From Burkholderiales bacterium (GTDB lineage: Bacteria > Pseudomonadota > Gammaproteobacteria > Burkholderiales > SG8-39), in assembly GCA_046153355.1 (NCBI GenBank), contig JBJXEY010000096.1:1-10226 (forward strand): a DNA stretch of 10,226 nucleotides, written 5' to 3'. Of this stretch, positions 4,603 to 7,943 are shown piece after piece. The position numbers were made by a program, and so were the translations under genes. The notes below the pieces were generated by a model. It saw only the letters and a program-made list of their open reading frames with translations. It was not told the origin of the DNA and did not search any database. Position 1 is the first letter of the stretch, and each line of letters begins with the position of its first letter.

Positions 4603-5745
4603 TCAAGCTCGGATTTTCACCAAATCCTTGAGAATGCCATCCAACCCGCCATATACCGAGATCTTGTCGATCTTCTCGGTCACCCTTTCCAAGGTTTCCA
4701 GCTCCTTCAAGCGCAGCGCAACTGGGTTGTCTTCCATCACCTTTGCCGTGTTCAGCAAAGACCGCGTTGCTGCGGTCTCCTCGCGCCGGCGAATCACATT
4801 GGCCTGCGCCGCCTTTTCGGCCTCGACGACGCGATTCAAGATTGTTTTCATCTCTCCCGGCAGGATGATGTCTTTCACCCCGACGGATTCGATTTCCAAT
4901 CCGTAACCTTGCACGCGCCGCTTGATAGTGTCGCCAACCGCCTCGTTGGTAATGCTCTTGTTCTCGAGCAATTCATCGAGGCTGCGCGTACCCACTGCCG
5001 CGCGCAGGCCGAATTGCAGCTCCTTGTACAGAAACTCCATTGGCTTGGCCTGCTTCGTAAATGCCAGCATGGCATCGGTGATGCGATAACCCGCGGTCAG
5101 GTTCACCCGCAAGCTCACCTTGTCGCGCGTCAGGATTTCCTGGCCGGCAACCTCCAACACCTGCAAACGCAGATCGATGTTTTCCACCTTCACCTCGCGC
5201 AGATGGCGCCAGAAATAGTGCATTCCAGATTCGAGCAAGCCCGAAAACTTTCCATCCACGTAGAGCATCCCGACGCTGTGGGAAGGCACCATGGCGACGA
5301 AAACCCCTTCGCTGCCAAGAAACTTCAACGGGCCGCGCGAGACGAATGCCGTTACTTTGGGAACCAATTCGGGCGCAATCGTGCATTCGGTCCCGATGTC
5401 AACTTTCTCAAACGCCACATCGATATAGCCCCTCCAATAAAGGCGACGCGTATTAGGACGCAAAATCTCGACCAGCACTCCGCCCTCATATCGCAATGCG
5501 ATTTGTGCAGCGCCCACTTCGATGGTCACGAACTCGCGCGCCACCAGATCCGGCTCCGCCATACGCAGGTAGTCGACCAACTTGTGATCGAACTGGGTTT
5601 GCGCCAACGAAAACTTCTCGACAGTAAGGCGATGCAAGGGATCGAAATAGGTGTATTCGCCGGCGCCAAGAAAGTCTACAAAATCGCCTTTGCGAAGCAG
5701 CATGGCGCGCTCGTCTTTCTTTACAAACACTTTAGTCATCAACAT
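4603..5745 (-). CDS. SPFH/band-7 (stomatin/slipin-like) domain protein, predicted cytoplasmic (no N-terminal TM helix)
   Basis: The ORF-track 447-aa frame is trimmed to the ATG (complement of 5743-5745), which has AAGGAG 7 nt upstream. The start is MLMTKVFVKKDERAML. The C-terminal half has SPFH hallmarks (GLEIESVGVKDIILPGEMKTILNRVVEAEKAAQANVIRRREETAATRSL...NPVALRLKELETLE). No hydrophobic membrane anchor is present. Confidence 0.8.
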   Translation of the reverse strand: MLMTKVFVKKDERAMLLRKGDFVDFLGAGEYTYFDPLHRLTVEKFSLAQTQFDHKLVDYLRMAEPDLVAREFVTIEVGAAQIALRYEGGVLVEILRPNTRRLYWRGYIDVAFEKVDIGTECTIAPELVPKVTAFVSRGPLKFLGSEGVFVAMVPSHSVGMLYVDGKFSGLLESGMHYFWRHLREVKVENIDLRLQVLEVAGQEILTRDKVSLRVNLTAGYRITDAMLAFTKQAKPMEFLYKELQFGLRAAVGTRSLDELLENKSITNEAVGDTIKRRVQGYGLEIESVGVKDIILPGEMKTILNRVVEAEKAAQANVIRRREETAATRSLLNTAKVMEDNPVALRLKELETLERVTEKIDKISVYGGLDGILKDLVKIRA

Positions 5746-6006
5746 TGTTTTTCTCCTTCTCATAAAAATGGTTCCGGCTTCCCGGCCGTTCGAGGGACAA
5801 CCGTGTTGCAAGCAAGGGAGACAAGCCGCGCCGCCCGCGATCGACCAATCCAATCTCATATTCGATCGGATAGACGGCCACGTATGGCTGTTGCTTTCTC
5901 GCCAACCTGCGCCAACGGCGCACATTTCGAACGGCTGGCGCGGCAAACCACTTGCCGCCGAAGCCGAACCCGGGCACTACATAAAACAGGCCTTTCAAGG
6001 ACCTAG

Positions 6007-6080
6007 GTTTTCCAGCGGGATTTGAACCCGCGACCTATCGGTTATCAGCCGATTGCTCTACCCAACTGAGCCATGGAAAT
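6007..6080 (-). tRNA. tRNA-Ile(GAT)-like, no encoded CCA, discriminator C, A1.A72 mismatch
   Basis: Hand fold of minus strand: ATTTCCA TG GCTC AGTTGGGTA GAGC A ATCGG CTGATAA CCGAT AGGTC GCGGG TTCAAAT CCCGC TGGAAAA C. The anticodon loop CUGAUAA is canonical. Pos 1 (A) cannot pair with pos 72 (A). Confidence 0.65.
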
Positions 6081-6153
6081 GGAGCGGAAGGTAAGAATCG
6101 AACTTACGACCTCGGGCCATGCCGCCCGCGCTCAACCACTGAGCTACATCCGC
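6080..6153 (-). tRNA. tRNA-like gene with CAU anticodon in a 6-nt anticodon loop (non-canonical; possible pseudo-tRNA); CCA encoded, its terminal A shared with pos 1 of the downstream Ile gene
   Basis: Minus strand: GCGGATG TA GCTC AGTGGTT GAGC G CGGGC GGCATG GCCCG AGGTC GTAAG TTCGATT CTTAC CTTCCGC T CCA. It has a perfect 5-bp anticodon stem but only 6 loop nucleotides. There is a U.U mismatch at 6:67 and a shortened D-loop. Confidence 0.5.
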
Positions 6154-6303
6154 ACGTATCCATCGTTCCCGCATCGCGGTATGCGCCCATCCAATTTTCA
6201 GGACGAGCGCACCAGGGAGGTCTCAAGAGCCTCGCCCGCTGACAACGCGTTCGCGACGAATTCTTTTTCTGCCAACTGTGGCAGTGGATATGGCAATAAA
6301 AAT

Positions 6304-6382
6304 TGGCGCCGCCGGTAGGACTCGAACCCACAACTTCCGCGTTCGAAGCGCGGCACTCTGATGCCAATTGAGTTACGGCGGC
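6304..6382 (-). tRNA. tRNA-Arg(TCG), CCA encoded
   Basis: GCCGCCG TA ACTC AATTGGCATCA GAGT G CCGCG CTTCGAA CGCGG AAGTT GTGGG TTCGAGT CCTAC CGGCGGC G CCA. All stems pair, with one G.U in the T-stem. Confidence 0.8.
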
Positions 6383-6388
6383 ATAAAT

Positions 6389-6465
6389 TGGGGTGATCGA
6401 CCCGATTCGAACGGGCATCTACTTGGTTCACATCCAAGTGCTTTGCCGATTAAGCTACGATCAAC
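6389..6465 (-). tRNA. tRNA-His(GTG) with G-1 and C73, CCA encoded
   Basis: G(-1) TTGATCG TA GCTT AATCGGCA AAGC A CTTGG ATGTGAA CCAAG TAGAT GCCCG TTCGAAT CGGGT CGATCAC C CCA. G-1/C73 is the bacterial His identity. Pos 1:72 is U.C. Confidence 0.75.
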
Positions 6466-6471
6466 GCTGAC

Positions 6472-6549
6472 TGGTCAGTGCGGTGAGATTCGAACTCACG
6501 ACCTCCGCGTTCCAAGCGCGGCGCGCTAGCCTGGCTGCGCTACACACTG
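6472..6549 (-). tRNA. tRNA-Pro(TGG), CCA encoded
   Basis: CAGTGTG TA GCGC AGCCAGGCTA GCGC G CCGCG CTTGGAA CGCGG AGGTC GTGAG TTCGAAT CTCAC CGCACTG A CCA. Confidence 0.85.
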
Positions 6550-6557
6550 AATAAATT

Positions 6558-6633
6558 TGGCAGGGACGGCGCGATTCGAACGCGCAACCCCGAGCTTCAA
6601 AGGCTCGTGCTCTACCGATTGAGCTACATCCCG
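6558..6633 (-). tRNA. tRNA-Gln(TTG), CCA encoded, G73
   Basis: CGGGATG TA GCTC AATCGGTA GAGC A CGAGC CTTTGAA GCTCG GGGTT GCGCG TTCGAAT CGCGC CGTCCCT G CCA. Pos 1:72 is C.U, compatible with the known weak 1:72 pair of Gln tRNAs. Confidence 0.8.
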
Positions 6634-6641
6634 ATAAAACA

Positions 6642-6717
6642 TGGCGCCGCCGGCACGGCATCGAACCGGCCTCTCGGGGGCTTCAAACCCGCGCTAATCC
6701 TTCTCAGCTACAGCGGC
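6642..6717 (-). tRNA. tRNA-Phe(GAA)-like, irregular (U.C at 31:39, one extra bulged nucleotide in 3' T-stem strand), CCA encoded
   Basis: GCCGCTG TA GCTG AGAAGGAT TAGC G CGGGT TTGAAGC CCCCG AGAG GCCGG TTCGATG CCG(T)GC CGGCGGC G CCA. Confidence 0.55.
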
Positions 6718-6724
6718 TATGTTT

Positions 6725-6801
6725 TGGTGCTGTCGGTCACGCATCGAACGGACGACCTCCCGCTTACAAGGCGGGTGCTCTTCCCACTGAGCTACGACAG
6801 C
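6725..6801 (-). tRNA. tRNA-Thr(TGT), CCA encoded, with one extra bulged nucleotide in the 3' T-stem strand
   Basis: GCTGTCG TA GCTC AGTGGGAA GAGC A CCCGC CTTGTAA GCGGG AGGTC GTCCG TTCGATG CG(T)GAC CGACAGC A CCA. All other stems are perfect. Confidence 0.7.
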
Positions 6802-6809
6802 GTAATAAA

Positions 6810-6885
6810 TGGCATCCCCGGCAGGATTCAAACCTACGGCCTGCGGATTCGTAATCCGCCGCTCTATCCTCTGAGCTACGGGGAT
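6810..6885 (-). tRNA. tRNA-Arg(ACG), CCA encoded
   Basis: ATCCCCG TA GCTC AGAGGATA GAGC G GCGGA TTACGAA TCCGC AGGCC GTAGG TTTGAAT CCTGC CGGGGAT G CCA. The T-loop has U56 with A at the D-loop position expected to pair with it (apparent A19-U56 covariation). Confidence 0.8.
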
Positions 6886-6887
6886 TT

Positions 6888-6963
6888 TGGCGAACCGTGC
6901 GGGGCTCGAACCCGCTACCACCGGCTTGAAGGGCCGGGCGCGCGGCGCTTTGCATTGCGGTTC
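6888..6963 (-). tRNA. tRNA-Glu(TTC)-like, non-canonical (C33, A8, degenerate D-arm lacking G18G19, C.A at 7:66), CCA encoded
   Basis: GAACCGC AA TGC AAAGCGCCGC GCG C CCGGC CCTTCAA GCCGG TGGTA GCGGG TTCGAGC CCCGC ACGGTTC G CCA. The T-arm and anticodon stem are perfect. It starts 2 nt after the Arg(ACG) gene. Confidence 0.5.
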
Positions 6964-6986
6964 CTAAAATTGATATTTCTGCCAGC

Positions 6987-7048
6987 CCACCCGGCGAGGT
7001 ACAAAGGGAATCGTGTGTGAGGTCACGATTCGCCCGCCTCGCCGGGTG
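6987..7048. other. 62-nt compound hairpin (12-bp outer stem, 8-bp inner stem) in the spacer between the Glu-like and Leu-like tRNA genes
   Basis: Outer stem CACCCGGCGAGG (6987-6998) / CCTCGCCGGGTG (7037-7048). Inner stem GAATCGTG (7008-7015) / CACGATTC (7024-7031) with an 8-nt loop. No U-tract follows on either strand. Confidence 0.5.
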
Positions 7049-7135
7049 ACGACAGAACTTATTGCCACATCCAAATTTTCAAAGAGCAATCCGCCTTGTT
7101 CCGGTCTCTATGCCGGCGCGGTTACAGCAAATTCC

Positions 7136-7213
7136 TGGTGCCCCACCCGAGATTCGAACTCGGAGAATCCGGTTTCTAAGACCGGCGCGTATGCCAGATT
7201 CCGCCAGCGGGAC
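7136..7213 (-). tRNA. tRNA-Leu(TAG)-like with short (5-nt) variable loop, i.e. class-I architecture; A73; CCA encoded
   Basis: GTCCCGC TG GCG G AATCTGGCATA CGC G CCGGT CTTAGAA ACCGG ATTCT CCGAG TTCGAAT CTCGG GTGGGGC A CCA. The D-arm is Leu-type (GCG/CGC 3-bp stem, long D-loop). The acceptor pairs with two G.U. There is no long variable arm. Confidence 0.6.
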
Positions 7214-7669: not shown

Positions 7670-7700
7670 ATTCAGGCTTCGATTTGTGAGGGTCGAATCC

Positions 7701-7943
7701 ATGACATCCAGTACTGCAAAGCCGCGCCGGCTCAAATGGCGCACCCGCGTAGTAATGGCCGAACGCGGCGTTCGTTCCGTATCAGCGCTTCGCCGCAAAC
7801 TTGAGGATCTGGGCATTTCCATCTCCGATGCCCAACTGGGCCGCATCATTGACGGCAGATCCAGTCATTTCAATTCCATTGTCGTCGGCGGACTGTTGAC
7901 GGCCTTGAACTGCGGTTTGACTGACCTATTCGCTGTTGCCTAG
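7701..7943 (+). CDS. XRE-family (Cro/CI-type) helix-turn-helix transcriptional regulator, 80 aa
   Basis: The ORF-track 7686..7943 frame is trimmed to ATG 7701 (GAGGG 8 nt upstream). The HTH_XRE pattern is RVVMAERGVRSVSALRRKLEDLGISISDAQLGRIIDGRSSHFNSIVVGGLLTAL. Confidence 0.7.
   Translation: MTSSTAKPRRLKWRTRVVMAERGVRSVSALRRKLEDLGISISDAQLGRIIDGRSSHFNSIVVGGLLTALNCGLTDLFAVA

Follow-up and report, generated by a model that had tools for sequence, protein, structure and literature searches.

Introduction

Burroughs and Aravind predicted in 2016 that a Band-7 protein and a tRNA-like RNA, the b7a-tRNA, are encoded next to RtcB, a prediction that is described as not validated as of 2018 in the passage on it in a later preprint (bioRxiv 10.1101/312249). 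Here we analyze a 74-nucleotide (nt) tRNA-like RNA encoded at positions 6080–6153, on the reverse strand, of a 10,226-nt stretch of DNA from a Burkholderiales bacterium (assembly GCA_046153355.1, contig JBJXEY010000096.1), hereafter called the window. The RNA carries a loop of six nucleotides at the place of the anticodon loop and is followed by a second tRNA-like RNA and a slipin gene; the two RNAs are referred to below as the upstream and the downstream RNA. Based on the comparison of homologues, we conclude that the upstream RNA is very probably a tRNA mimic that is conserved, does not decode and belongs to the slipin module. The finding falls within the kind of system that was predicted in 2016.

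In the account of the citing preprint, the b7a-tRNA is a tRNA-shaped non-coding RNA beside an RtcB-linked Band-7/SPFH gene and is presumed not to decode. The downstream RNA, which is called tRNA-Ile(GAU), fits this account directly. Rfam has no family of its own for the b7a-tRNA or for the upstream RNA. The upstream RNA is a second tRNA-like RNA and is set apart from the b7a-tRNA, as described there, by an encoded NCCA end in the clade of the window, a hypervariable loop of 4–14 nt, a preceding leader and, in other clades, the form of a minihelix.

Other systems are relevant for the comparison. Operons under the control of RtcR are responsive to 5' halves of tRNAs with a terminal 2',3'-cyclic phosphate (PMC7790460), and a 2026 study places an SPFH gene within the rtc locus of P. 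aeruginosa (PMC13086221). Long, horizontally transferred tRNA "L-arrays" are linked to HNH genes and co-regulated with rtcB in cyanobacteria, and a function as "sponges" that take up toxin RNases has been proposed for operonic tRNAs (Santamaria-Gomez et al. 2021, PMC8421152). The genes at 6304–7213 of the window agree with L-arrays in being supernumerary tRNA genes on the same strand, with an HNH neighbour and, in related loci, a linkage to RtcB. In contrast, the upstream RNA, which closes the array on its 3' side, does not keep an anticodon and is also found where no array is present, and was not assigned to the L-array.

The tRNA-like Y RNA YrlA (RF02553) of the rsr-yrlBA-rtcBA operons resembles the upstream RNA in that it mimics the D- and T-arms of a tRNA, has no functional anticodon loop and belongs to an RtcB-linked operon. 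However, YrlA has a closed acceptor stem without CCA and a Ro60-binding stem, and adjoins rsr, whereas the acceptor stem of the upstream RNA is open and ends in UCCA. The best overlapping match of the upstream RNA to RF02553 reached only 19.9–23.2 bits, as compared to a gathering score of 69, and no TROVE/Ro domain was identified in any of the neighbourhoods examined. The low score, the lack of a Ro/TROVE gene nearby and the open acceptor with CCA thus argue that the upstream RNA is not a Y RNA. Matches to Rfam families beyond tRNA, namely YrlA and Plastid-ycf2, were dismissed as sub-threshold tRNA look-alikes.

Fold of the upstream RNA

Analysis by ARAGORN identified nine tRNA genes over positions 6006–7213 on the reverse strand, including the upstream RNA and Ile(gat). 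The upstream RNA was labelled "tRNA-?(Cys|Met)(ca)" with a length of 74 nt, and the two-base "anticodon" in this label indicates a loop of 6 nt. The Rfam tRNA model matched positions 6083–6153 with a score of 54.4 bits (E ~1e-9), well above the gathering score of 29, which confirmed a real tRNA-like fold. The alignment placed 6 residues at the 7-residue loop of the model and marked pair 6:67 as non-canonical. Direct reading of the RNA gave GCGGAUG UA GCUC AGUGGUU GAGC G CGGGC GGCAUG GCCCG AGGUC for the 5' part, followed by GUAAG UUCGAUU CUUAC CUUCCGC U CCA. This is a full cloverleaf with a 7-bp acceptor stem that includes U6.U67, a D-loop with G18G19, a variable loop of 5 nt, the T-loop UUCGAUU, a discriminator U and an encoded CCA. 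The minimum free energy (MFE) fold retains the 5-bp stem and the 6-nt loop.

A sequence-only reading of this stretch had described a perfect 5-bp stem, CGGGC/GCCCG, closing the six-nucleotide loop GGCAUG without U33, as well as a U.U pair at 6:67. The stem, the loop and the missing U33 were recovered by ARAGORN, Rfam and direct reading, and the U.U pair by the Rfam alignment. The same reading had considered that another stem register might restore a canonical 7-nt loop. No such fold was found by inspection, as opening of the C31-G39 pair yields a loop of 8 nt and the other registers never give 7. Its statement that the D-loop is shortened does not hold, since the 7-nt AGUGGUU with G18 and G19 is within the normal range and only U21 is unusual, the homologues having A at this site.

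Homologues, loop variation and covariation

Homologues were obtained by a search for slipin homologues and analysis of their genomic neighbourhoods, supplemented with two DNA-pattern scans of genomes and metagenomes. The scans were too strict and recovered only 4 and 2 loci, mostly duplicates, and most homologues came from the slipin neighbourhoods. The arrangement of a leader, a tRNA-like RNA, a second tRNA-like RNA and a slipin gene was observed in the window and in 8 further lineages. In these lineages (L002, L003, L004, L015, L020, L021, L022 and L026) the positional homologues of the upstream RNA lie upstream of slipin orthologues with 67–81% identity. ARAGORN reported a "tRNA-???" directly before a tRNA in L002, L003, L004, L015, L022 and L026, and labelled the homologue in L020 as Gln. 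The homologue in L021 was missed by the program because its loop is 14 nt long.

The loops of the homologues differ in both sequence and length. A loop of 6 nt is present in the window (GGCAUG), in L002 (CGUGUG), in L003 and L004 (CCCAAA) and in L015 (CGCAAU). The loop in L022 is UGGU, which is 4 nt or, if the stem is taken as 4 bp, 6 nt. Similarly, the loop in L026 is UGUCAG, 6 nt with a 4-bp stem, or GUCA, 4 nt, if a U.G pair closes a 5-bp stem. The loops in L020 and L021 are CUUUGUG (7 nt) and AAUGCGAAACCAUG (14 nt), respectively. All six positions vary among the five 6-nt sequences, with a mean pairwise difference of 0.53 in the loop, as compared to 0.11 at the other unpaired positions and 0.14 in the stems. 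The ordinary array tRNAs across the loci hold 7-nt loops and their anticodons, such as Arg CUUCGAA, Lys CUUUUAA and Asn CUGUUAA.

The sequence-only reading had named a sequencing indel as a possible source of the short loop. An indel introduced by sequencing or assembly into a normal tRNA gene would be in line with the window being a single short contig of a metagenome-assembled genome, and one homologue (L020) does carry a 7-nt loop. However, the 6-nt state is found in the window and four other sequence types (L002, L003, L004 and L015), of which the L002, L004 and L015 types were each recovered from 2–5 separate assemblies. Identical copies in separate assemblies or samples numbered 3 for the L002 type, 5 for the L004 type, 2 for the L015 type and 2 for the L022 type. 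An indel is therefore excluded for practical purposes and retains a negligible probability.

The helices were analyzed for compensatory changes. In the alignment of 8 lineages, 96.4% of the cells of the cloverleaf were paired, and 12 of the 21 pairs had changed on both sides. None of 500 shuffled alignments reached any of the five measures, and pairing was only 35–55% when the 3' partners were slid by 1–3 columns. The anticodon stem CGGGC/GCCCG is replaced by the compensatory CGAGC/GCUCG in L003 and L004, and the acceptor stems have been swapped wholesale among the homologues (GCGGGUG/CAUCCGC, GGUGAUC/GGUCACC and UGGGAAU/AUUCUCA). The U6.U67 mismatch is confined to the lineage of the window, and L002 has a U-A pair at this position. 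As judged from these alignments, the acceptor, D, anticodon and T helices and the elements of the L-shape (G18G19, a UUCGA T-loop and a 5-nt variable loop) are shown to be selectively kept. The terminal loop of the "anticodon" arm shows no detectable constraint, and its sequence and length change as is usual for an exposed loop of a hairpin.

The compensatory maintenance of the helices is unlike the behaviour of a decaying pseudogene. The sequence-only reading had offered a decaying pseudo-tRNA and a deliberately aberrant molecule as alternatives, and only the latter agrees with the compensatory changes that keep all four helices and with the fixed position in the module. A decaying pseudogene derived from one of the array tRNAs (Met, Ile2, Cys or Gln) by loss of a loop nucleotide would resemble the degenerate members that do occur in the array (a Phe-like gene with a score of 33 bits, a Thr gene with a defective T-stem and a Gly/Glu remnant), and would be consistent with the Gln-like, 7-nt loop in L020 and with the restriction of U6.U67 to the window. 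We nevertheless consider this explanation very unlikely, given the level of pairing and the number of compensated pairs, and the fixed position between the leader and the downstream RNA, also in L026 where there is no array. In addition, the comparison to isoacceptors showed that the upstream RNA is about 70–75% identical to many different tRNAs but not specifically similar to any of them. An origin from tRNA-Gln was suspected from the CUUUGUG loop in L020 and the CGAGC stem, but tRNA-Gln is not singled out by an identity that is only 70–75% and shared with many tRNAs.

Alternatively, the RNA could function in decoding despite its odd loop, for example as a doublet-decoding or frameshift-promoting tRNA, or a Met, Ile2 or Cys tRNA. 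Altered sizes of the anticodon loop shift the reading frame in suppressor tRNAs, which like the upstream RNA have a cloverleaf with a loop other than 7 nt, and the cloverleaf of the upstream RNA is complete with an encoded CCA. However, decoding by frameshift suppressors needs a defined loop sequence, whereas neither the sequence nor the length of this loop is conserved among the positional homologues, and U33 is absent. Met and Ile identity in bacteria involves an A73 discriminator, which the upstream RNA does not have; its discriminator is U in the window and U, G or A among the homologues. A decoding function thus appears extremely unlikely, and the label of a CAU, Met/Ile2-type tRNA given by the sequence-only reading is not supported.

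A rapidly changing loop would also be expected if the RNA were a decoy or sentinel for anticodon-loop ribonucleases, with cleavage of a diversifying loop either soaking up the toxin or yielding a 5' half with a 2',3'-cyclic phosphate as a damage signal. The loop evolves at approximately 5 times the rate of the remaining RNA, the surrounding module is one of tRNA repair, and the "sponge" proposal for operonic tRNAs (PMC8421152) follows similar lines. On the other hand, no anticodon loop of 7 nt is mimicked by loops with lengths of 4, 6 and 14 nt. In the leader, the long covarying hairpin likewise has a terminal loop that varies freely, which fits a plain lack of constraint, and neither an RtcR gene nor a sigma-54 promoter before the leader was found in the clade of the window. 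On balance, we regard a decoy function as improbable.

The downstream RNA and the shared nucleotide

The downstream RNA was analyzed across 14 lineages, in which its mean identity is 86%, with 93.5% of the cells paired and compensatory changes at 11 of the 21 pairs. Its acceptor end is irregular: CCA is never encoded in the homologues, pair 1:72 is unpaired in 10 of the 14 lineages and pair 2:71 in 5 of the 14. The anticodon is GAU, UAU, CAU, AAU, UGU, CGA or AAA depending on the lineage, position 33 is likewise U, C or A, and the homologue in Burkholderia cenocepacia (L024) has a GAAA tetraloop on a 6-bp stem. From these comparative data we conclude that the putative tRNA-Ile(GAU) is itself a tRNA mimic.

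The sequence-only reading had noted that the terminal A of the upstream RNA is also the first base of the Ile gene, and that both could not be released intact from one precursor without repair of the CCA. The overlap exists in the ARAGORN calls, but only if the downstream RNA is given a 7-bp acceptor stem with A.A as the first pair. The repair argument is formally correct for the window but loses its force, because position 1 is unpaired in 10 of the 14 lineages and most relatives have a separate C or U as a spacer. This extra base between the CCA and the downstream RNA is a C in L003, L015, L020, L021 and L022 and a U in L004, and it is missing in the window and in L002. The two RNAs then abut as ...UCCA|UUUCCA... 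Since the spacer base corresponds to position 1 of the downstream RNA, which is unpaired in most lineages, its loss should be tolerable. Cleavage by RNase P before A6080 would leave the upstream RNA with a CC end that requires the CCA-adding enzyme, and cleavage after A6080 would let the downstream RNA start one base later with a 6-bp stem.

The leader and the slipin transcript

The upstream RNA is preceded by a conserved structured leader without a match to any Rfam family. The RNAalifold consensus of the leader contains 42 pairs, of which 13 show compensatory changes. In addition to the 5' hairpin, it has a closing stem formed over a long range (AUUCGUCG / CGAUGGAU), another stem and two more hairpins, of which one holds GAGGCUCUUGAG..CCUC followed by CCUGGUGCGC. 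Reduced versions of the leader are found behind sigma-54 promoters in Rhodocyclaceae, Accumulibacter, B. cenocepacia and E. coli, and exact matches to the sigma-54 consensus (TGGCAC-N5-TYGCW) are located just upstream of the leader in the array-free loci L010, L012, L024 and L025. A homologous but unannotated leader is present in 1,632 of 5,426 complete E. coli genomes (~30%). In L026, the leader and both tRNA-like RNAs occur without a tRNA array, and thus the upstream RNA belongs to the slipin leader unit rather than to the array.

The terminator-like hairpin that follows the downstream RNA has the stems AAGCC/GGCUU, AACCCC/GGGUU and CACCU/AGGUG in the homologues. A motif with the sequence GCAGUACCC(G) about 20 nt past this hairpin is kept in L010, L012, L020, L021, L024 and L026, and its form in the window is GUAGUGCCCGG (5960–5990, reverse strand). 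This suggests that the ~260-nt 5' untranslated region (UTR) of the slipin gene may contain more conserved structure.

A rival explanation is that the RNAs act in cis, as 5'-UTR structures that provide signals for processing by RNase P or other ribonucleases, or for attenuation. They would then determine where the slipin mRNA starts, how stable it is or how far it is read through, without any release in trans. In agreement with such a role, the elements always have the same orientation and are located approximately 350 nt or less upstream of the slipin gene, and a covarying terminator-like hairpin lies between the RNAs and the gene. The only recognisable promoter in L010, L012, L024 and L025 is the one upstream of the leader, such that slipin would have to be read through the leader in these loci. 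However, G18G19, the T-loop, the 5-nt variable loop and the 7-bp acceptor stem with NCCA exceed what a processing signal would be expected to need. A role solely in cis is therefore an unlikely explanation, although action in cis and the release of a mimic are not mutually exclusive.

An E. coli locus with slipin and nucleotidyltransferase genes (L025 4660–5000, CP061233) is situated between rluF/DUF3811 and lysC. It has the sigma-54 promoter together with a leader that includes a T-arm-like element. RefSeq has no annotation of it, and it could provide a model that can be grown in culture.

Organization of the locus

The features of the window are summarized in Table 1.

Table 1. Features identified in the window, with positions, strand and basis of assignment.
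Feature	Position	Strand	Basis or remark
Upstream tRNA-like RNA, 74 nt	6080–6153	−	ARAGORN, Rfam tRNA model, covariation
6-nt "anticodon" loop GGCAUG	6118–6123	−	Direct reading and MFE fold
Loop-closing stem CGGGC/GCCCG	6124–6128 and 6113–6117	−	Direct reading
Encoded CCA abutting the downstream RNA	6080–6082	−	A6080 doubles as base 1 of the downstream RNA in ARAGORN calls
Downstream tRNA-like RNA, called tRNA-Ile(GAU)	6006–6080	−	ARAGORN; Rfam 64.9 bits; A1.A72 mismatch
Terminator-like hairpin and U-run directly 3' of the downstream RNA	5987–6005	−	Covaries in homologues
Conserved structured leader RNA, ~130–150 nt	6154–6303	−	Alignments and RNAalifold
Same-strand tRNA gene array	6304–7213	−	ARAGORN, Rfam
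Long-range inverted repeat arms (TTATTGCCACATCCA / TGGATATGGCAATAA)	6285–6299 and 7059–7073		15 nt, 93% complementary
Slipin/SPFH (Band-7) protein gene, 379 amino acids (aa)	4603–5742	−	Pfam PF01145
HNH endonuclease gene, 187 aa	3946–4509	−	Pfam HNH_5 / HNH

The slipin gene starts 263 nt downstream of the tandem tRNA-like pair, and the same arrangement was observed in all related loci examined. A gene for an HNH protein of 187–195 aa follows slipin in L002, L003, L015, L017 and L021, and precedes it in L020. RtcB adjoins the unit in L003, L004, L010, L015, L022 and L026, and the module is also accompanied by an AAA ATPase in L026 and at the P0046 locus, and by a nucleotidyltransferase in E. 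coli. An identity of slipin and HNH as a defence system was rejected, as PADLOC gave only generic HNH matches and NCBIfam nothing specific.

The position of the upstream RNA was also inspected in more distant loci. It is occupied by an acceptor-like minihelix ending in UCCA in L017 and L019, by a truncated T-arm element ending in CACCA in L010, and by an acceptor/T-arm minihelix in L024 (B. cenocepacia), whereas in L012 the downstream mimic is duplicated and its extra copy takes this place. Within the positional homologues, the 3' end in L026 is GCUG rather than NCCA.

A proposed function in tRNA repair

On the evidence of its conserved order, the upstream RNA is the middle part of a non-coding unit with three parts, namely the leader, the CCA-ending mimic and a b7a-type RNA. 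From the gene neighbourhoods compared, this unit is at the head of a slipin (Band-7/SPFH) module, to which relatives add RtcB, an HNH nuclease, an AAA ATPase or a nucleotidyltransferase. We suggest that the unit would be co-transcribed with the tRNA array upstream of it, and from the sigma-54 promoter in the array-free relatives. RNase P would then cleave at the 5' ends of the tRNA-like RNAs, such that the cut before the downstream mimic makes the 3' end of the upstream RNA. In the clade of the window this end would already be N-CCA or, in the window, a CC that is completed by the CCA-adding enzyme. The freed, tRNA-shaped RNAs may act together with slipin and RtcB against tRNA damage, as a cofactor, a scaffold or a model substrate, in analogy with YrlA in the rsr-yrlBA-rtcBA operons. 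Taken as a whole, a mimic in a three-part unit of the slipin module with a role in repair is the explanation that we consider likely. The identification as a conserved, non-decoding mimic is held with high confidence, and the specific role of the upstream RNA in the repair of tRNA damage with considerably less.

Several observations weigh against this explanation. RtcB is absent from the 10.2-kb contig as well as from the 21-kb stretch of L002 that was examined. An NCCA end is not universal among the homologues, and hence a role that depends on a free CCA cannot be general; moreover, the "CCA" in the minihelices of L010 and L024 may be base-paired. The covariation sample is small (8–9 lineages) with related sequences, and the relatives within the clade of the window are metagenome-assembled genomes throughout. 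Finally, we infer the steps of transcription, processing and interaction with protein partners from sequence.

Substrates and cofactors have yet to be defined for the bacterial RtcB repair systems, and the RNAs described here are concrete candidates for studies on the recognition of damaged tRNA by slipin and RtcB. On its RNA side, the system comprises more than one tRNA-like gene, with a covarying leader and two tandem mimics, one with NCCA and one without CCA, and in the clade of the window this unit is fused to a mobile tRNA array. Annotators will call such elements tRNA-Ile, tRNA-Met, tRNA-Thr or "tRNA-???", and they should not be counted as decoders.

A broader and rather doubtful extension is that the leader, the CCA-ending mimic and the b7a-type mimic form a single, uncurated composite RNA system of approximately 300 nt for slipin/RtcB-type repair, which would be distributed over Burkholderiales, Rhodocyclales and, in a reduced form, about 30% of complete E. 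coli genomes. In such a system, the tRNA module with its free loop would be a built-in model substrate or sentinel, and its state of cleavage and ligation, or its binding to a slipin cage, would report on or organise tRNA repair. The covarying inverted repeat, which surrounds the array in the window and in L015 also RtcB, would in this case serve the whole cassette as a processing stem of the kind known from rRNA.

The tRNA array and its surroundings

The array contains genes for Leu-UAG, Arg-ACG, Thr-UGU, a Phe-like tRNA, Gln-UUG, Pro-UGG, His-GUG and Arg-UCG, all with an encoded CCA and 7-nt loops. The inverted repeat brackets the segment of the array from the Leu(UAG) spacer to the leader. 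The corresponding repeat in L002 has arms of 13 nt that are 100% complementary, with 886 nt between them. In L015 the arms are 28 nt and 79% complementary, lie 3.5 kb apart and enclose RtcB. Both arms have changed in each of these two loci. The repeat could be an RNA processing stem or mark the boundary of a cassette.

A conserved non-coding spacer of 160 nt follows tRNA-Leu(UAG) (6975–7135, reverse strand) and contains a 12-bp hairpin (6988–6999 / 7037–7048) that covaries in L002. The tRNA-Leu(UAG) gene itself (7136–7213, reverse strand) has a 5-nt variable loop in place of the long arm of bacterial tRNA-Leu, and the Leu genes of related arrays are likewise just 77–78 nt.

Some members of the array are irregular. 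The gene at 6645–6717 (reverse strand), which was detected by Rfam only (33.2 bits) and not by ARAGORN, resembles Phe(GAA). Its loop is UUGAAGC, its anticodon stem is closed by a U.C mismatch and its T-arm is disrupted, and it is probably a degenerate array member. The T-stem of tRNA-Thr(UGU) (6725–6801, reverse strand) is defective in the window. At 6886–6960 (reverse strand), a tRNA-like remnant with the arm CCGGC CCUUCAA GCCGG, the T-arm GCGGG UUCGAGC CCCGC and the end ...CGCCA occupies the place of intact tRNA-Gly and tRNA-Glu genes in L015, and looks like the product of a deletion or fusion. U33 is missing in otherwise normal array tRNAs of L004, L015, L020, L021 and L022 (Gly CCGCCAG, Ile CCGAUAA, Val CCUACAA, Pro UCCGGAA / CCCGGAA and Cys CAGCAAA), which may be relevant to the evasion of anticodon nucleases.

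A phage origin of the tRNA cluster was considered and rejected, as the search for related phage records and two motif scans of viral contigs were empty, and the cluster is flanked by genes of an ordinary bacterial kind. A looser scan of viral contigs for the anticodon arm gave one odd and unrelated element (L001 1180–1282, IMG/VR contig 3300009529_000076). Its D-loop carries an insertion, its CGGGC/GCCCG stem is identical to that of the upstream RNA but closes a loop of 5 nt, its T-loop is non-canonical and its end is CCACCA.

A small divergent open reading frame (ORF) at 7686–7943 on the forward strand, opposite to the array, resembles HTH_26 (Cro/C1-type) by eye, with no match in PADLOC or NCBIfam. 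Small HTH_26 genes are found at the same relative position in L004 and L015, and from this shared position the ORF would be a candidate regulator of the cassette.

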